Of a DNA stretch of 32,653 nt, positions 1-14,301 are shown piece after piece. The notes under the pieces were generated by a model. The model saw only the letters and a list, made by a program, of their open reading frames with translations. It searched no databases and was not told the DNA's origin. Numbering within the stretch: position 1 is the stretch's first letter; every line of letters starts with the position of its first letter. Position numbers and translations under genes: made by a program. This stretch comes from a virus (Duplodnaviria; Heunggongvirae; Uroviricota; Caudoviricetes), in the IMG/VR virus record IMGVR_UViG_2541047739_000007, one strand, 5' to 3'.

Positions 1-1164
1 TTACGCCTTCTTTATATCCTCCATAATTCCACAGTGGGACATATTTGGGACATTATCACCAAAAATGTCGTCTATTTTCCTTGCATGCTCTGTCAAATGA
101 TTAGGCGCAAGGTGAGCATACCTACGAACCATTTCTATGGACTCCCATCCGCCCATTTCCTGAAGCACAGATAATGGGACGCCTGACTGGATCAGCCAGC
201 TTGCCCAGGTGTGTCTGAGGTCATGGAAACGGAAATCTTCAATTCCTGCACGACGACAAGCTGATAGCCATGATGTCTTGCTGTCGATGCGCATCTTCCT
301 GACCGCAGGCGTTGATGTTCCATCTGCTCGCTTAGTCGCCTTGGTATGTACAAACACCCATTTGTGATGCTTGCCTATTTGATCACGCAACACTTTACAG
401 GCGGTATCGTTCAGCGCCACACCAATGGCGCGGTTTGATTTGCTCTCTTCTGGATTCACCCAGGCAACTCGTCGCTGCATGTCGATTTGTTGCCATTCCA
501 GATTTATGATGTTCGACTTTCTCAGACCAGTTGCCAGCGCAAACTTGACGACAGATTTCAGTGGTTCGGGGCACTCATCAATAAGGCGTTTTGCTTCCTC
601 CTTTTCCAGCCATCTGACTCGCTTGTTTCTGACCGCTGGTATCTTGATGACAGGCGCTTTTTCCAGCCACTTCCAGTCGCGTTCTGCAGCACGGAGAATG
701 GCCTTTATCATGGCAAGATGCTTTGCCTTTGTCTGAGTTGATACTGGCTTTGGTTCATAAACAGGCGGTTCTTTACCTTTCCTGATGGCGGCCTGAACTT
801 TCTGTTTCCATATTTCTTTCGTCTTTCTGTTATGCATTCTGCTTACAGCAGAGTAAATCTTTGCCTCCGAGATATCTTTAAGCCTTATACCCTCAAAATG
901 TTCAAGCCAGAACTCAATCCGGCTTTTATCTGAATCGAGAGATTTTTTATCAGCTTTTTCCTCAAGCCATCTTAGGCAGGCCTCTTCAAAAGTGACATCA
1001 GGTAAATCCCCTAGCTTTTCTACTCGCCAGAGTTCTGCTTTTCGCTTGTCGTGCAACTCCTGAGCTTGCCGCTTGTCCTTTGTGCCAAGAGATTCCTTAA
1101 TTCGTTTCCCGCCCGGGAGCGAATACGAGGCATACCATATTTCATTTCTGCGGAAGAGTGACAT
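1..1164 (-). CDS. int: Tyrosine site-specific integrase, P22/lambdoid type
   Basis: 387-aa ORF; N-terminus [34 protein letters not shown] resembles P22-family integrases; C-terminal HDLRHT...RYAHL tyrosine-recombinase signature; window begins at its stop codon, so att lies left of the window. Confidence 0.9.
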
Positions 1165-2967: not shown

Positions 2968-3243
2968 GTGGCTTCTGTTTCTATCAGCTGTCCCTCCTGT
3001 TCAGCTACTGACGGGGTGGTGCGTAACGGCAAAAGCACCGCCGGACATCAGCGCTATCTCTGCTCTCACTGCCGTAAAACATGGCAACTGCAGTTCACTT
3101 ACACCGCTTCTCAACCCGGTACGCACCAGAAAATCATTGATATGGCCATGAATGGCGTTGGATGCCGGGCAACAGCCCGCATTATGGGCGTTGGCCTCAA
3201 CACGATTTTACGTCACTTAAAAAACTCAGGCCGCAGTCGGTAA
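2968..3243 (+). CDS. insA: IS1 InsA (transposition inhibitor / N-terminal part of transposase)
   Basis: 91-aa [46 protein letters not shown]... recognised as IS1 InsA. Confidence 0.95.
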
Positions 3244-3665
3244 CCTCGCGCATACAGCCGGGCAGTGACGTCATCGTCTGCGCGGAAATGGACGAACAGT
3301 GGGGCTATGTCGGGGCTAAATCGCGCCAGCGCTGGCTGTTTTACGCGTATGACAGGCTCCGGAAGACGGTTGTTGCGCACGTATTCGGTGAACGCACTAT
3401 GGCGACGCTGGGGCGTCTTATGAGCCTGCTGTCACCCTTTGACGTGGTGATATGGATGACGGATGGCTGGCCGCTGTATGAATCCCGCCTGAAGGGAAAG
3501 CTGCACGTAATCAGCAAGCGATATACGCAGCGAATTGAGCGGCATAACCTGAATCTGAGGCAGCACCTGGCACGGCTGGGACGGAAGTCGCTGTCGTTCT
3601 CAAAATCGGTGGAGCTGCATGACAAAGTCATCGGGCATTATCTGAACATAAAACACTATCAATAA
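3162..3665 (+). CDS. insB: IS1 InsB reading frame (expressed as InsAB' transposase via -1 frameshift at A6C, 3219-3225)
   Basis: 167-aa frame ...[28 protein letters not shown]... recognised as IS1 InsB; TTAAAAAAC slippery run present. Confidence 0.95.
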
Positions 3666-5942: not shown

Positions 5943-6617
5943 TTAGGCTTTGATTTTGTATCTTCTTGGTTTTCCTGAGAAAATCACAGTTCCAATTATA
6001 GAGCAATTACCGTTGATCTTAATGTAAGGCTCAGGCCAGTTTGGGTTTAACGCTTTGAGATAACGCTGTGTCCCATCTTCTATCAACCTTTTGAAGGTGG
6101 TTTCACCTGTATCGTGCATCAATGCAATAACGTCGTCACCGTGGCAGGCAGGTACTTCAGGATCGACAAAAATCATGTCTCCCGGGCGGTACTCATCAAT
6201 CATTGAATCACCTATCACCCGCAAGATATAAGTCATTTCCCCACAGGGTACAGGGCAGGGATACGTTTCTGCTGTGCTCAAATCAACCTCAGAATATCCA
6301 ACTTCTTTCCATGCTCCGGCCTGTACCCATGATATGACAGGGACTAATGTGATTTGTTTATTAGTGATTGAAACATCAGGTTTTTTTGTGATGTTCGTTG
6401 TCTGGTGTTCTTGATCGAGCCATCCGACAGGCAGGTCGAAACATTTTTCGATGTGTCGTGCCATGCTGTCACCGATATTTTTAGTAGCACCATCTCCCAT
6501 AAACCTGCTGGTCTGGGTTGGCTCGCGATCAATCATAGTGGCAAAGGAAGAATTCCCGCCAACACCATCTCTCAGTTTTCTGGCGTTAGACCGCCGGATG
6601 TCATGGATTGTTTTCAT
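5943..6617 (-). CDS. cI: CI-like prophage repressor with C-terminal S24 (LexA-like) self-cleaving peptidase domain
   Basis: 224 aa; C-terminal GDSM serine motif and downstream TFKRL lysine (Ser-Lys dyad); divergent from a cro-like gene. Confidence 0.85.
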   Translation of the reverse strand: MKTIHDIRRSNARKLRDGVGGNSSFATMIDREPTQTSRFMGDGATKNIGDSMARHIEKCFDLPVGWLDQEHQTTNITKKPDVSITNKQITLVPVISWVQAGAWKEVGYSEVDLSTAETYPCPVPCGEMTYILRVIGDSMIDEYRPGDMIFVDPEVPACHGDDVIALMHDTGETTFKRLIEDGTQRYLKALNPNWPEPYIKINGNCSIIGTVIFSGKPRRYKIKA

Positions 6618-6685: not shown

Positions 6686-6707
6686 GTATACCGGAGGTAC
6701 ATATTGT

Positions 6708-6908
6708 ATGAAAGCGTATTGGGACTCTTTAACCAAAGAACAGCAGGGCGAGTTGGCCGGAAAAGTTGGCTCAACACCTGGCTACTTACGGCTGGTTTTC
6801 AATGGCTATAAAAAAGCCAGTTTTGTGCTGGCTAAAAAACTTGAGCAATGCACGTCAGGTGCAATTACGAAATCTGACTTAAGACCGGATATCTATCCGA
6901 AAGATTAG
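6708..6908 (+). CDS. cro: Cro-like small HTH regulator
   Basis: 66-aa ORF MKAYWDSLTKEQQGELAGKVGSTPGYLRLVFNG... with GGAGG SD; divergent from cI. Confidence 0.7.
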   Translation: MKAYWDSLTKEQQGELAGKVGSTPGYLRLVFNGYKKASFVLAKKLEQCTSGAITKSDLRPDIYPKD

Positions 6909-6939: not shown

Positions 6940-7509
6940 ATGAGGCTAATCGTGGGTAAGCATCACTGGAAAATAGAAAAACAGCCTGAGTGGTACGTGA
7001 AAGCTGTCAGAAAAACTATCGCGGCGTTGCCGGGTGGTTACGCTGAAGCGGCTGACTGGCTCGATGTAACAGAAAACGCTTTATTCAACCGCCTTCGTGC
7101 AGATGGCGATCAGATTTTCCCGCTGGGATGGGCAATGGTTTTACAGCGTGCTGGTGGCACTCATTTCATTGCTGATGCTGTGGCGCAGTCTGCAAATGGC
7201 GTCTTTGTGTCTCTTCCTGACGTCGAGGATGTGGACAACGCCGATATTAACCAGCGTCTGCTGGAAGTCATTGAACAGATCGGCAGTTATTCAAAACAGA
7301 TTCGTTCAGCAATCGAAGACGGTGTAGTGGAACCGCATGAGAAGACAGCAATTAACGACGAGCTGTATCTCTCAATTTCGAAGCTGCAGGAGCATGCAGC
7401 ACTTGTCTACAAAATTTTTTGCATTTCAGAAAGTAATGACGCCCGCGAGTGTGCAGCTCCGGGCGTCGTGGCGTCGATTGCTTCTGGTTGTGGAGAAACT
7501 AACGCATGA
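6940..7509 (+). CDS. Putative CII-like / YdaT-like regulatory protein
   Basis: 189-aa ORF directly after cro; alternative GTG start at 6952 has a better SD; family assignment from position and weak motif resemblance only. Confidence 0.4.
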
Positions 7510-7864
7510 ACAGTTTAACAACACACTACCGTCGCTCGCAACTGATTGCGCTTCCTGTACCGGGTGGAAAAGCGAAGGTGGAATATTGCTATGCAGTGAA
7601 TGTACCAGGTGACAGGGAAATTGTAACCCACAGCTTTGCAGAGTGGGCTGTGGGGGATTTCAACCGGCAGAAGGAGACAGTCCTTTGCGACAAGTTAACC
7701 GCTGGTTCAAAGATCACTACGGAGTGCCCGTCAGAGTCATTCGTTGGGAACCGGAAACACAACGGGTTATCTACCTCCGCGAAGGCTATGAGCATGAGTG
7801 CTTCAGTCCGCTCGAACAGTTTCGTCGTAAATTCAGGGAAATAGAGGTCGGTCATGAGCACTAA
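7506..7864 (+). CDS. Hypothetical protein, apparently frameshifted: frame-A N-terminus (7506..~7655) continues in frame B (7613..7864)
   Basis: Frame-A C-terminal tail is low-complexity while the overlapping frame-B ORF looks protein-like and ends overlapping the next gene start; a GGGGG run at 7652-7656 is the likely shift point. Confidence 0.4.
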
Positions 7865-8795
7865 ATTAACCGGCTATGTATGGGATGGTTGCGCAGCGTC
7901 AGGCATGAAATTATCCAGCGTGGCAATTATGGCCCGCCTGGCTGATTTCAGTAATGACGAAGGTGTGTGCTGGCCATCGATTGAAACCATTGCCCGCCAG
8001 ATTGGCGCGGGGATGAGTACAGTCAGAACGGCTATCGCACGGCTGGAAGCAGAAGGCTGGTTAACGCGTAAGGCGCGTCGCCAGGGTAACCGCAATGCGT
8101 CGAATGTTTATCAGCTTAACGTTGCGAAGCTTCAGGCTGCGGCATTTTCTCAACTGTCAGATTCTGACCCGTCAAAATCTGACGCATCAAAATCTGACCC
8201 GTCAAAATTTGATGCGTCGAAATCTGGCAAAAAAGCGGGTTTTCACCCGTCAGAATCTGGCGGGGATCCGTCAGTAAAATCAAAACATGATCCGTCAGAT
8301 AAAAAACCTTCTCGTCCGGACGCTTCGCAACCGGACACGCAGACGGCTGAACAGGATTTTTTAACTCGCCATCCTGATGCGGTTGTATTCAGCCCTAAAA
8401 AGCGCCAGTGGGGGACGCAGGATGATTTGACCTGCGCACAGTGGCTCTGGAAAAAAATCATCGCCCTGTACGAGCAGGCTGCCGAATGTGACGGCGAGGT
8501 GGTTCGTCCCAAAGAACCGAACTGGACAGCCTGGGCAAACGAAATTCGCCTGATGTGTGTGCAGGATGGTCGTACTCACAAACAAATCTGCGAGATGTAC
8601 AGCCGCGTCAGCCGCGATCCGTTCTGGTGCCGTAACGTGCTCAGCCCGTCGAAGCTGCGGGAAAAATGGGATGAGCTTTCCCTGCGCTTATCGCCGTCCG
8701 TAAGCACGTACACCGAAAAACGCGAAGACCCGTACTTCAAAGCCAGTTACGACAACGTGGACTACAGCCAGATCCCGGCAGGATTCAGGGGGTAA
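7854..8795 (+). CDS. Replication initiator (lambda O-like organisation: N-terminal winged-helix, acidic/serine linker, C-terminal domain)
   Basis: 313 aa; iteron array lies inside the linker-coding region (SDSDPSKSDASKSDPSKFDASKSGKK); position downstream of cro/CII-like genes. Confidence 0.7.
   Translation: MSTKLTGYVWDGCAASGMKLSSVAIMARLADFSNDEGVCWPSIETIARQIGAGMSTVRTAIARLEAEGWLTRKARRQGNRNASNVYQLNVAKLQAAAFSQLSDSDPSKSDASKSDPSKFDASKSGKKAGFHPSESGGDPSVKSKHDPSDKKPSRPDASQPDTQTAEQDFLTRHPDAVVFSPKKRQWGTQDDLTCAQWLWKKIIALYEQAAECDGEVVRPKEPNWTAWANEIRLMCVQDGRTHKQICEMYSRVSRDPFWCRNVLSPSKLREKWDELSLRLSPSVSTYTEKREDPYFKASYDNVDYSQIPAGFRG
8164..8223. repeat. Four tandem 15-bp iterons (TCTGACCCGTCAAAA family), candidate replication origin, with degenerate copies to about 8300
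   Basis: TCTGACCCGTCAAAA / TCTGACGCATCAAAA / TCTGACCCGTCAAAA / TTTGATGCGTCGAAA in register, then an A-rich tract and more CCGTCAG copies. Confidence 0.7.
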
Positions 8796-8797
8796 TC

Positions 8798-9286
8798 ATG
8801 AGTCTTTTGAATGAAGTTCAGAAATTCATTGAAGCCCATCCGGGGTGTACTTCCGGAGACATTGCGGATGCTTTTGCAGGTTACTCACGGCAGCGCGTTC
8901 TGCAGTCAGCAAGCAAGTTACGTCAGAGTGGGCGTGTGGCTCACCGTTGTGAAGGGGATACACGCAGACATTTCCCGCGCCTGACTGAGAGAGCGCAGGA
9001 GCCGGAACCACAACCAGTTCGTGAAACCAGACCTGCGCGCAATTTCTATGTCGGCACTAACGATCCACGGGTAATTTTGTGCCTGACCCGCCAGGCTGAA
9101 GAACTGGAGTCCAGGGGCTTATACCGTCGTGCTGCAACCGTGTGGATGGCGGCATTCCGTGAAAGCCACTCCCAACCAGAACGAAACAATTTTCTGGCGC
9201 GTCGTGAGCGGTGTTTACGGAAAAGCAGCAAGCGCGCTGCATCGGGTGAAGAGTGGTATCTGTCAGGGAATTACGTGGGGGCTTAA
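8798..9286 (+). CDS. Hypothetical protein in the replication module (possible helicase-loader or regulatory role)
   Basis: 162-aa ORF immediately after the initiator; stop overlaps the next start (TAATG). Confidence 0.45.
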   Translation: MSLLNEVQKFIEAHPGCTSGDIADAFAGYSRQRVLQSASKLRQSGRVAHRCEGDTRRHFPRLTERAQEPEPQPVRETRPARNFYVGTNDPRVILCLTRQAEELESRGLYRRAATVWMAAFRESHSQPERNNFLARRERCLRKSSKRAASGEEWYLSGNYVGA

Positions 9287-9939
9287 TGAGTAATAAATAT
9301 TGCCAGGCGCTGGTGGAACTGCGGAACAAACCAGCCCATGAACTGAAGGAAGTGGGCGATCAGTGGCGCACGCCGGACAACATTTTCTGGGGAATTAACA
9401 CCCTGTTTGGCCCGTTTGTTCTGGATCTGTTCACTGACGGTGATAACACCAAATGTGCTGCGTATTACACGGCGGAAGACAACGCGCTGGCGCATGACTG
9501 GTCAGAACGTCTTGCGGAGCTTAAAGGTGCTGCCTTTGGTAATCCCCCATACAGCCGCGCCAGTCAGCATGAGGGGCAATACATCACAGGCATGCGTTAC
9601 ATCATGAAGCATGCCAGTGCCATGCGTGATAAAGGCGGGCGCTATGTTTTCCTGATCAAAGCTGCCACCAGCGAAGTGTGGTGGCCGGAAGATGCAGATC
9701 ATATTGCTTTTATTCGCGGGCGTATTGGTTTTGAACTGCCTGCCTGGTTTATCCCGAAAGATGAGAAGCAGGTGCCGACAGGCGCTTTCTTCGCTGGTGC
9801 TATTGCTGTTTTCGACAAGACCTGGAAGGGACCGGCAATCAGCTACATCGGGCGCGATGAACTTGAGGCATGTGGTGAGGCGTTTCTGGCGCAGGTTCGC
9901 CAGCAGGCGGAAAAACTGGTCAGGGAGATGGCGGCATGA
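9286..9939 (+). CDS. Phage N6-adenine DNA methyltransferase (Dam-like)
   Basis: Start MSNKYCQAL coupled to the upstream stop; catalytic GNPPYS (NPPY) motif. Confidence 0.8.
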   Translation: MSNKYCQALVELRNKPAHELKEVGDQWRTPDNIFWGINTLFGPFVLDLFTDGDNTKCAAYYTAEDNALAHDWSERLAELKGAAFGNPPYSRASQHEGQYITGMRYIMKHASAMRDKGGRYVFLIKAATSEVWWPEDADHIAFIRGRIGFELPAWFIPKDEKQVPTGAFFAGAIAVFDKTWKGPAISYIGRDELEACGEAFLAQVRQQAEKLVREMAA

Positions 9940-10262
9940 CGACGTTAACTCAATGCCAGCAGCAGGTGCTGGATATGCTGATTTCTTATCAGAAAGAACG
10001 TGGCTTCCCGCCAACCAATCAGGAGGTGGCAACCATGCTGGGATACCGTTCAGTGAATGCAGCGGTGGAGCATCTTCGCGCACTGGAGAAAAAAGGCGTC
10101 ATCACGATAAAGCGTGGTGTGGCCCGGGGGATCACGCTTCATACCGTGGTGAAGGACGACGACAGCGAGGCGGTCGGGATTATCCGCTCACTGCTTGCCG
10201 GTGAGGAAAACGCCAGGCTGCGTGCAGCCCACTGGTTACATGAGAGGGGCCTGAAAGTATGA
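9936..10262 (+). CDS. LexA DNA-binding-domain-only protein (no S24 peptidase domain)
   Basis: 108 aa; MTTLTQCQQQVLDML...GFPPTNQEVATMLGYRSVNAAVEHLRALEKKGVITIKRGVARGITL aligns along its length with the LexA N-terminal winged-helix domain; the ORF ends before any peptidase domain. Confidence 0.7.
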   Translation: MTTLTQCQQQVLDMLISYQKERGFPPTNQEVATMLGYRSVNAAVEHLRALEKKGVITIKRGVARGITLHTVVKDDDSEAVGIIRSLLAGEENARLRAAHWLHERGLKV

Positions 10263-10654
10263 AGTTGATCCTACCTTTTCCGCCCAGCGTGAACACGTAC
10301 TGGCGACACCCCAACAAAGGGGCGTTTGCTGGTAAGAGCCTGATAAGCGCGGCGGGGCGAAAATTCCAGAGCGCGGCGTGTGCAGCAATAGTTGAGCAGT
10401 TACGTCGTCTGCCGAAACCAACGTCGGCACCTGCTTCAGTGGAGATCGTGTTGTTTCCTCCGGATAACCGGATCCGCGATCTGGACAACTATAACAAGGC
10501 GCTGTTTGACGCCCTGACCCACGCGGGTGTGTGGGAAGACGACAGTCAGGTGAAAAGAATGCTGGTGGAGTGGGGACCGGTTATCCCGGAGGGGAAGGTC
10601 GAGATCACTATCAGTAAGTACGAAAAAGCGAGTTGCAAATTAGCAACTCGGTAA
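10259..10654 (+). CDS. rusA: Holliday-junction resolvase RusA
   Basis: 131 aa; PPSVNTYWRH...DLDNYNKALFDALT motifs characteristic of RusA. Confidence 0.85.
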   Translation: MKLILPFPPSVNTYWRHPNKGAFAGKSLISAAGRKFQSAACAAIVEQLRRLPKPTSAPASVEIVLFPPDNRIRDLDNYNKALFDALTHAGVWEDDSQVKRMLVEWGPVIPEGKVEITISKYEKASCKLATR

Positions 10655-12629: not shown

Positions 12630-12646
12630 TTTTGTGGAGAAAGTTA

Positions 12647-13030
12647 ATGCGTGATATTCAGATGGTTCTTGAACGTTGGGGAGCGTGGGCGGCTAATAAT
12701 CATGAAGATGTGACCTGGTCGTCCATTGCCGCCGGTTTTAAGGGATTAATTCCTTCAAAAGTAAAATCTCGCCCGCAATGTTGTGACGATGACGCGATGA
12801 TCATTTGCGGGTGCATGGCCCGTCTGAAAAAGAACAACAGCGATTTACACGATTTATTAGTAGATTATTATGTATGTGGTATGACATTCATGTCACTGGC
12901 AAGTAAGCATTGCTGCTCGGATGGTTATATCGGGAAAAGGTTACAGAAGGCTGAGGGCATAATTGAAGGGATGTTAATGGCATTAGATATCCGGTTAGAT
13001 ATGGATATCGTTGCTAATAATTCTAATTGA
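12647..13030 (+). CDS. Late-gene antiterminator, Q-like
   Basis: Start [11 protein letters not shown] with GGAGA SD; Cys-rich ([12 protein letters not shown]); position between nin-type genes and the lysis cassette. Confidence 0.55.
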
Positions 13031-13218: not shown

Positions 13219-14301
13219 TTAGAACTGATAAACCAGACCTACAGCGACGATGTCGTCGGTATCAATACCAGCTGTTTTGGTAAACTTACTATCGTCAATT
13301 AAGTTGATTTTGTAATCAACAAAAGTGGACATGTTTTTATTAAAGTAGTAAGTAGCACCGACATCGACATACTTGACTAAGTCTCGGTCACCATGAACAC
13401 CAAGGTCTTTACCTTTTGACTGAAGGTAAGCAACAGATGGACGCAGACCGAAGTCAAACTGATATTGTGCTACTGCTTCAAAGTTTTGTGCTTTGTTTGC
13501 AATATGGTTATTACCAAAAACGGTCATATTCTGAGTTTCAGAATATGTGGTAGCCAGATAGATATTGTTCGCATCATATTTCAGGCCTGCAGCCCATACT
13601 TCCGCATTTTTGCCGGAGGCATTGAATTTGCTCTTACCATAGGCGACCTGACCGTCAGTGCGATCTGATTTAGCATAGGTTGCACCCACGCCGAATCCTT
13701 CATACTCATAAGTAGTGGAGAAACCGAAACCATCACCATTGGCTTCAGTTACGTCAGTGCGGTCATTTTTACCCTGATACTGAGCAGCAAAGTTCAGGCC
13801 ATCGACCAGACCAAAGAAGTCGTTGTTACGATAAGTTGCAACACCAGTAGTGCGACCAGTCATGAACACATCTGTTTGGGTCCAGGTATCACCACCGAAT
13901 TCTGGCAGGACGTCAGTCCACGCACCGATGTCGTATGCTACACCGTAGTTACGGCCGTAATCGATTGAGCCGTAATCACCAAATTTCAGGCCTGCAAATG
14001 CAAGACGGGTTTTGTCTTTGGAAGAACCTTGAGATTCAGCACGGTTGCCTTTGAATTCATATTCCCACTGACCGAAACCAGTCAGTTGATCGTTGATTTG
14101 GGTTTCACCTTTGAAGCCAAGACGGGCATAAGTAGTATCACCATCATCTGCATCATTAGAGGAGAAGTAGTGCTTGGCATTAACTTTCCCGTATAGATCC
14201 AGCTTGTTACTGTCTTTATTATAAATTTCAGCTGCCTGAGCAGACATCGCCATCAGTACTGATGCAGCTACAGCAGAAATTGCCACTGTTAATTTTTTCA
14301 T
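13219..14301 (-). CDS. nmpC: OmpC/OmpF-family outer-membrane porin (prophage-borne NmpC/Lc type)
   Basis: 360 aa; signal peptide [23 protein letters not shown]; porin C-terminus ...VGLVYQF; on the opposite strand between Q and the lysis genes. Confidence 0.9.

Follow-up and report, generated by a model that had tools for sequence, protein, structure and literature searches.

That a phage origin of replication can lie inside the gene of its own initiator is a textbook principle. In bacteriophage lambda, symmetric initiator sites occupy the middle of the O gene within the part coding for the interdomain linker (nucleotides 349-433), an A-rich tract lies 3′ of the sites, and origin and N-terminal domain together form one exchangeable module; lambda ori also has to be activated by transcription. 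Phage phi80 carries four annotated gp15 sites inside gene 15 at the same relative place, and in P22/L gene 18 and the six-iteron origins of the Shiga toxin (Stx) phages 933W and P27 the initiator binds its own iterons within its own coding region. The initiators of lambda, P22 and L each bind different iterons within their own genes (PMC8022706). Published O-iteron biochemistry concerns the lambda-type O proteins of 933W and P27; in P27, iteron mutations were made with the O protein sequence unchanged and two extra iterons were reported to be crucial for plasmid establishment (PMC7466680). We analysed a 32,653-nucleotide stretch of DNA (IMG/VR record IMGVR_UViG_2541047739_000007), referred to in its full length as the window, which derives from an SfII/SfIV-type lambdoid prophage of Escherichia coli. 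Positions 8153-8300, inside the linker-coding part of its replication initiator gene (7854-8795, plus strand), very probably constitute an iteron-type phage replication origin. An earlier reading made from the letters alone (the sequence-only reading) had proposed this place as the likely origin, and all comparative tests that we ran agree with an initiator-binding iteron array.

The arrangement is an ordinary one with its own recognition sequence and not a new kind of system. The sites occupy gene nucleotides 300-447, in the linker as in lambda, and are followed by an A-rich tract, weaker than that of lambda, the C-terminal domain is homologous to that of O, and origin and N-terminal domain again behave as one exchangeable module. 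The N-terminal domain, however, is of the HTH_36 type, and the iteron, GTCAGAnTCTGAC, is unrelated to the lambda sequence ATCCCTCAAAACGAGGGA, as the sequence-only reading had remarked. The sites recur every 15 bp here whereas lambda iterons start 20, 24 and 23 bp apart; there are five tandem and one isolated full sites with two half-sites in place of four sites, and there is no P gene. These comparisons support a recognition specificity distinct from that of lambda. Phage phi80 also has a homologous C-terminal domain, but its sites are TCCCGAAAACGGGAA-like, its N-terminal domain is dissimilar and a P-like gene 14 is present. An origin of the phi80 type, considered on account of a homologue named 'Replication protein 15', was rejected since gp15 shares the C-terminal domain only and the annotated sites differ, and oriJ of the Rac prophage was rejected as an experimental proxy because YdaU of K-12 is a DUF1376 protein, a different initiator type. 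P22, L and the Stx phages differ in having other initiator families, other repeat sequences of ~20 bp (11 bp in L) and an encoded helicase, gp12, or loader, P. Among iteron plasmids, R6K (pi), pSC101 (RepA), P1 (RepA) and RK2 (TrfA) have winged-helix initiators and direct repeats beside an A+T-rich region. Their iterons, unlike those described here, lie outside the rep gene, measure 17-22 bp and are phased at ~2 helical turns, and the plasmid origins usually also need DnaA boxes, of which none with at most one mismatch was found in 8150-8310.

The repeat array and its initiator

Tandem Repeats Finder reports a repeat at 8163-8226 with a period of 15, 4.3 copies, the consensus TCTGACCCGTCAAAA and a score of 86, which also scores as a period of 30. 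In an alternative register the unit is the 13-bp near-palindrome GTCAGAnTCTGAC followed by two variable bases. Five such units (GTCAGATTCTGAC, GTCAAAATCTGAC, ATCAAAATCTGAC, GTCAAAATTTGAT and GTCGAAATCTGGC) make up the array at 8156..8228, beginning at 8156, 8171, 8186, 8201 and 8216 with a spacing of exactly 15 bp, and a sixth copy begins at 8249. The sequence-only reading had counted four in-register 15-bp repeats; the repeats and their spacing are real but the count was low. GTCAGA-T-TCTGAC is a perfect 13-bp palindrome from which the other copies are 1-3 mismatches away, and the 13-mer GTCAGAnTCTGAC or a 14-mer, TCTGACnnGTCAGA, may be the site recognised by a dimer. All six sites with at most two mismatches in the window fall within 106 bp. 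At the same threshold, 300 first-order Markov shuffles gave 0.86 sites per window on average, and in none of them did two sites fall within 110 bp; allowing up to three mismatches there were 24 matches against 9.2 +/- 3.2 expected, a number reached by 0 of 100 shuffles.

Conservation counts and column entropies were taken over 69 related loci from the Enterobacterales, ranging from Escherichia to Proteus, Yersinia and Pantoea. A variable spacer, AAAAAAGCGGG (8229..8239; column entropies ~0.8-1.7 bit), separates the array from a conserved block at 8240..8298. The block comprises TTTTCAC-CC-GTCAGAATCTGGC, including the sixth iteron (8249-8261), and then two half-sites, GATCCGTCAG, arranged as a direct repeat at 8265..8274 and 8289..8298. 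Each half-site includes a GATC (Dam) site, the first inside GGATCC and conserved in 69/69 loci, the second in 61/69. The further copies of CCGTCAG noted in the sequence-only reading are found at 8247, 8268 and 8292, the last two inside GATCCGTCAG. The tract GTAAAATCAAAACATGATCCGTCAGATAAAAAACC (8274..8308, plus strand), moderately rich in A+T and biased towards A on this strand, is a candidate unwinding region, and a run of AAAAAA occupies 8229-8234. Repeats and block together correspond to amino acids 101-150 and lie wholly inside the predicted disordered linker; the peptide encoded in the array, in the frame of the 313-amino acid open reading frame (ORF), is SDSDPSKSDASKSDPSKFDASKS.

The GATC sites (8265-8268 and 8289-8292) are 24 bp apart and each is fused to a CCGTCAG half-site. 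The phage has its own Dam methylase, the gene for which directly follows the initiator gene in many relatives, and control of the origin by methylation or SeqA is conceivable from this layout. Separately, window 8246-8268 (CGTCAGAATCTGGCGGGGATCC) resembles CGTCAGAGAATTCTGGCGAATCC of lambda (39158-39180; L080 662-684) and CGTCCGAGAATTCTGACGAATCC of phi80, both of which lie just right of AT-rich tracts, but the order of elements differs from that in the window and the likeness is unproven.

From N- to C-terminus the initiator (313 amino acids) consists of an HTH_36 domain, a linker, a domain of the lambda-O type and a short tail, and it matches PHROG 391 'replication initiation O-like' (E 8e-136). 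Its gene shares 99.9% identity with the PhiR49_1 phage gene and 98.9% with the genes of the Shigella phages SfIV and SfII. An AlphaFold model built with an input alignment of 50 homologues falls into four parts, namely a winged helix (amino acids 1-98), a disordered stretch with pLDDT below 50 (102-161), a helical domain (164-280) and a floppy tail. The N-terminal domain (coding region 7854..8147), the presumed iteron reader, is modelled with helices at 3-16, 20-31, 43-50 and 54-67, a beta wing at 70-88 and a further helix at 90-98. By Foldseek it resembles winged helices of the MarR/ArsR type, which bind palindromes as dimers and several of which have been solved on DNA; sequence and fold searches for solved structures returned generic MarR/ArsR-like winged helices only. 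The Pfam scan, at a cut-off of E <= 0.01, gave HTH_36 (E 4e-11), GntR, HTH_29, PaaX, DnaD_N, RP-C and MarR for this domain and did not match Phage_rep_O (PF04492). The weak matches to replication-protein winged helices, DnaD_N (E 1e-3) and RP-C (E 5e-3), lie below the cut-off.

The C-terminal domain (8343..8693; helical, pLDDT 84-94) aligns by BLASTP with lambda O (E 7e-26; amino acids 70-277 of the window protein against 78-270 of O) and with phi80 gp15 (E 4e-25), in both cases over the C-terminal part only, and shares with O the stretch WGT..DLT.A.W...PN..WAN.IRLM..DGR.H...C......D.FW..NVLSP.KLR.KW. The 'O' protein of Stx phage 24B is 43% identical to the initiator over amino acids 25-90. 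The description of the gene in the sequence-only reading as an O-like gene mirroring lambda thus holds for the position of the repeats in the linker and for the C-terminal domain, but not for the N-terminal domain, which is HTH_36 and not Phage_rep_O.

Of 5426 complete E. coli genomes, 1576 carry a full-length initiator gene and 1950 the origin region, with at least 80% of the 211-bp origin query covered in 1922 of the latter. The length of the array is stable within the species, being unchanged in all but 2 of 25 among the matches listed. The remnant in the CPS-53 (KpLE1) prophage of K-12, which lies by yfdN and matches query positions 234-940 only, has kept the iteron array and the C-terminal domain and lost the first 78 codons with the DNA-binding domain, and is left with an origin that lacks its reader. 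In many E. coli contigs the first ~79 initiator residues are fused to RusA or other sequence, giving chimeras of 138-140 amino acids (P0047-P0059 and others), to which the 455-amino acid fusions in L056 and L076 are comparable; this suggests recurrent deletions ending near codon 79 of the initiator gene.

Selection on the DNA and inheritance with the N-terminal domain

Scanning a single genome from each species yielded 77 loci with the same N-terminal domain (56-100% amino acid identity), spanning Escherichia, Citrobacter, Kosakonia, Kluyvera, Buttiauxella, Yersinia, Rahnella, Pantoea, Providencia, Proteus, Gilliamella and others. Every intact locus carries the 12-nucleotide conserved core TCA-AAA-TCT-GAC with a 3-nucleotide variable spacer, at 15-bp spacing and in the same frame; the arrays hold 2 to 11 units, most often 5-6, with rare gaps of 30 bp, and a block equivalent to window 8240-8298 follows the array in each. 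Because all intact loci read the repeat in the same frame, comparison of frames is uninformative and we relied on synonymous sites and codon choice instead.

Third-position entropy averages 1.58 bit over 32 N-domain codons with conserved amino acids and at least four-fold degeneracy, close to saturation, and ~0.41 bit over the 20 third positions of 8240-8298, which makes the block the most conserved DNA of the locus. Many of its columns do not vary in any of the 69 loci, among them GAT (8265-8267), GTA (8274-8276) and two TCA codons, synonymous positions included. Serine in the array is encoded by TCA 325 times, by TCT 261 times and by AGY once among 637 codons, while AGY accounts for 340/678 serine codons of the N-terminal domain. 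The choice is moreover specific to position, with TCA before lysine (183/186) and TCT before aspartate (187/237). Lysine in the array is AAA in 192/195 cases as compared with 219/367 in the N-terminal domain. Amino acid changes are nevertheless tolerated at the spacer codon (Pro, Ala, Thr or Gly) and at positions 8244, 8250 and 8272. With synonymous sites nearly fixed and amino acid change tolerated in the spacers, it is the DNA sequence that is under selection here and not the encoded peptide. The Citrobacter phage phiNP has a third-position identity to the window of 0.53 in the N-terminal domain and 0.84 in the origin, and the conserved stretch has diverged flanks on both sides, so that recent transfer is no explanation. 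As the sequence-only reading had held, the repeats impose a peptide repeat on the protein, and SD(P/A)SK is, judging from these codon data, a side effect of a DNA repeat placed in a disordered linker that tolerates it.

In all of the related loci the array directly adjoins the N-terminal domain, whatever lies further downstream. The same N-terminal domain and iterons precede five C-terminal clusters of two kinds, Phg_2220_C and lambda-O-type, either kind occurring both extended and unextended, and the next gene varies as well (PerC-like, Dam, another methylase, lambda-P-like, DnaC/IstB-like or other). Beyond the module junction, at 8299..8320, the attached C-terminal domain differs between loci: column entropy rises above 1 bit past 8298, phiNP similarity to the window stops after ~8330, and phage mEp460_4F5 has the window's C-terminal domain from ~8303 on behind an unrelated N-terminal domain, with a 23-bp repeat (x5.4) at the same place.

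Different initiators carry different repeats. SfV orf39, 2H10 and Stx2a_1447 have only the tail in common with the window, together with a third N-terminal domain and the repeat GTGCAn5TKCAC (x5), and the initiator of an E. coli TUM13773 prophage, whose N-terminal domain is ~58% identical, has the core GTCAAnnnTTGAC at the same 15-bp spacing. All of these, with mEp460_4F5, resemble the window locus in gene position, tail (DYSQIPAGFRG or EIPPGFRG), the same or a similar PerC-like gene downstream and the presence of linker repeats, but each pairs its own repeat with a different or diverged N-terminal domain. The TUM13773 initiator (L084 1039-2001) keeps the GATCCGTCAG block of the window despite its different array units. 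Loci with the array consensus TCAAAATCTGAC keep the recognition helix STVRT and the wing RRxGNRNxSN, and altered cores go with an altered helix and wing (Trabulsiella STVIT, GARN; TUM13773 STVKS, GGRN; Gilliamella SAVKL, GQRN). The sequence-only reading had called for iterons to be compared across related prophages and had suggested a distinct initiator-origin specificity; the same array with the same N-terminal domain, and different arrays with other N-terminal domains at the same place, bear this out, and the pattern supports the view that these are matched initiator-origin specificity pairs.

We also looked for a natural mini-replicon among plasmids, and rejected this line because the small circular records are either excised phage genomes or a 16-kb fragment with a frameshifted rep, too uncertain as evidence of autonomy. 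That fragment, the circular record pZ1322PEC0161-2 (L087), is a piece of prophage running from the immunity region to the lysis genes; its frameshifted rep (L087 1660-2637) is of the same sister type as the TUM13773 initiator and is followed by a DnaC-like gene. The record could represent a dv-like replicon of natural origin or else an error of assembly.

Proposed initiation mechanism and alternative readings

The mechanism that we infer, from initiator binding and unwinding through helicase recruitment to origin activity, would run as follows. Upon induction, rightward early transcription would lead to production of the 313-amino acid initiator, whose winged-helix N-terminal domain, probably as a dimer, would bind the palindromic GTCAGAnTCTGAC at five tandem sites and one isolated site, plus the two GATCCGTCAG half-sites. 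The resulting nucleoprotein complex would destabilise adjacent DNA, most plausibly the A-rich stretch at 8274-8308, and the lambda-O-type C-terminal domain and/or the IPxGFRG tail would recruit the host DnaB. Family matches (Pfam, PHROG) from the integrase to Q revealed no helicase, helicase loader or primase, and neither P nor a DnaC-like or DnaB-like protein is encoded in that interval, for which reason recruitment would probably proceed via the host DnaC.

Several points weigh against an origin at this place or against parts of this mechanism. Conservation of the DNA shows a sequence-specific function and not origin function in particular. With no loader encoded, the helicase-recruitment step is conjecture. 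A spacing of 15 bp amounts to ~1.4 helical turns, which turns each site to almost the opposite side of the helix from the one before, so that a wrapped O-some like that of lambda is not guaranteed. The A-rich tract of the sequence-only reading exists but is much weaker than its lambda counterpart: the best 30-nucleotide window (8280-8309; A=14, T=6) is 67% A+T as against 80%, and an unwinding element is thus not evident. Our literature search found no experiment on this initiator family. SfIV, which carries this gene, was isolated as a phage (PMC3851460), so that the module evidently works without an encoded loader.

The spacing and the missing loader can be read jointly, in a way that we advance tentatively and consider rather unlikely, as a filament-like assembly of the initiator on back-to-back 15-bp sites combined with loader-free helicase recruitment via the IPxGFRG tail. 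The palindromes fill 13 of every 15 bp and inverted half-sites alternate 7 and 8 bp apart; such packing could force dimers onto alternating helix faces and give a continuous protein filament instead of a DNA wrap. The weakly AT-rich, GATC-bearing core might then be opened under Dam/SeqA control and the tail might recruit host DnaB-DnaC directly. If this were true, a module found in about one third of complete E. coli genomes would represent a loader-free route of helicase recruitment.

Because conservation proves that the DNA has a function but not which one, the sites might instead be bound by the initiator, or by another phage or host protein, for regulation only, as an autorepressive roadblock or in handcuffing copy control, with the origin elsewhere. 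We regard this as improbable. Plasmid iterons do also serve copy control and the AT-rich tract is weak, but no second multi-copy array or AT-rich candidate was found elsewhere in the early region, and the position is exactly that of the proven origins of lambda and phi80. A regulatory role also has to be set against inheritance of the array with the N-terminal domain through swaps of C-terminal domain and downstream gene; the downstream genes (PerC-like, Dam and LexA-DNA-binding-domain) vary between loci and are therefore not the readers.

Still less probable is a role of the repeats and of the block at 8240-8298 in something other than initiator binding, for instance in binding a host factor, in sequestration by Dam/SeqA, as a hotspot of recombination that gives rise to the module junction, or as part of a small ORF overlapping the gene. 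Two GATC sites are conserved, but control through GATC would supplement an origin role and not replace it. The block is kept in the TUM13773 relative whose tandem iterons differ, yet its half-sites are those of the array. ORFs in other frames run across the array (8095-8277, plus strand; 8116-8283, minus strand) as an automatic by-product of a stop-free repeat, and would leave the dyad symmetry and the free 3-nucleotide spacer unexplained. The mosaic junction immediately 3′ of the block fits a hotspot; as for host proteins, 8150-8310 contains, besides the absence of DnaA boxes reported above, only a single IHF-like site, with one mismatch. Least probable of all is a slippage-made low-complexity linker, (SDxSK)n, selected if at all as protein and without DNA function, since for all that the repeat sits in a predicted disordered linker and varies from 2 to 11 copies between genera as slippage predicts, synonymous positions are near-fixed while the spacer-codon amino acid varies, each unit is a DNA palindrome, meaningless for a peptide, and unrelated initiators carry unrelated DNA repeats and unrelated peptides at the same spot, so that the codon data largely refute it and essentially exclude a reading at the level of the peptide only.

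The early region and the place of the module among prophages

The probable iteron-type origin at 8153-8300 lies in the early region of the prophage, whose genes were assigned from their ORFs and family matches. An integrase is encoded at 1-1164 (minus strand) and a cI-like S24 repressor at 5943-6617 (minus strand), followed by a cro-like gene (6696-6908), CII of the CP76 type (6940-7509) and a DUF4222 gene (7643-7864) overlapping the initiator gene at its start. In 63/72 related loci a DUF4222-like ORF lies within 500 nucleotides upstream of the initiator, making it a frequent but not obligatory companion. No P-type loader was seen directly downstream of the initiator, where the next genes are a PerC-like yfdN homologue (8798-9286), a Dam methylase (9253-9939), a 108-amino acid LexA-DNA-binding-domain protein (9936-10262) and RusA (10259-10654), and the Q antiterminator lies at 12632-13030. 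The LexA-DNA-binding-domain protein is without an S24 peptidase domain and is conserved in replication regions of the SfV/SfII type. A transposase-like ORF (PHROG 720) is found at 3162-3665 in the early-left region, and a minus-strand ORF of 360 amino acids (PHROG 410) at 13219-14301, between Q and the late genes, is probably a moron. Rfam and tRNA scans of the window found no RNA genes.

The C-terminal tail of the initiator, YDNVDYSQIPAGFRG (8748..8792, plus strand), is speculatively a docking motif for host helicase-loading proteins. A C-terminus of the form DYSxIPxGFR(G/S) recurs in initiators whose C-terminal domains are of three unrelated kinds, lambda-O-type, Phg_2220_C and SfV-orf39-type, and the IPxGFR(G/S) tail occurs in L001, L081-L084, L087 and many of L003-L079. 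A homologous initiator in L047 has a lambda-P-like gene next to it, L074 and L075 fall in the same next-gene cluster, and in these three the tail is missing or altered. In L087 and L051, where the next gene is DnaC/IstB-like, the tail is found complete or as IPEGF. From this distribution, IPxGFR may be a candidate short docking motif for DnaC-type helicase loading in loader-less modules.

As the principle of an origin inside its initiator gene is established, the conceptual gain is small. We found no description of the origin of this family in the SfI, SfIV and Sf101 genome papers, which name only a 'replication module', nor in the yfdO/CPS-53 papers or the Stx replication-region paper, and iteron annotation is absent from the database records examined for the initiator and its relatives. 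The review by Weigel and Seitz (2006) reportedly classifies initiator-only modules and may already have predicted this origin. What the analysis supplies is origin coordinates and a recognition sequence for one of the commonest replication modules of E. coli and Shigella prophages, a module which occurs in the serotype-converting phages SfII and SfIV and as the yfdO remnant in CPS-53 of K-12. The related loci offer a natural series of matched initiator-iteron pairs relevant to winged-helix specificity, phage-phage replication incompatibility and orthogonal replicons, and the loader-less module lends itself to the question of how the host helicase is brought in by an O-type initiator when P is absent.

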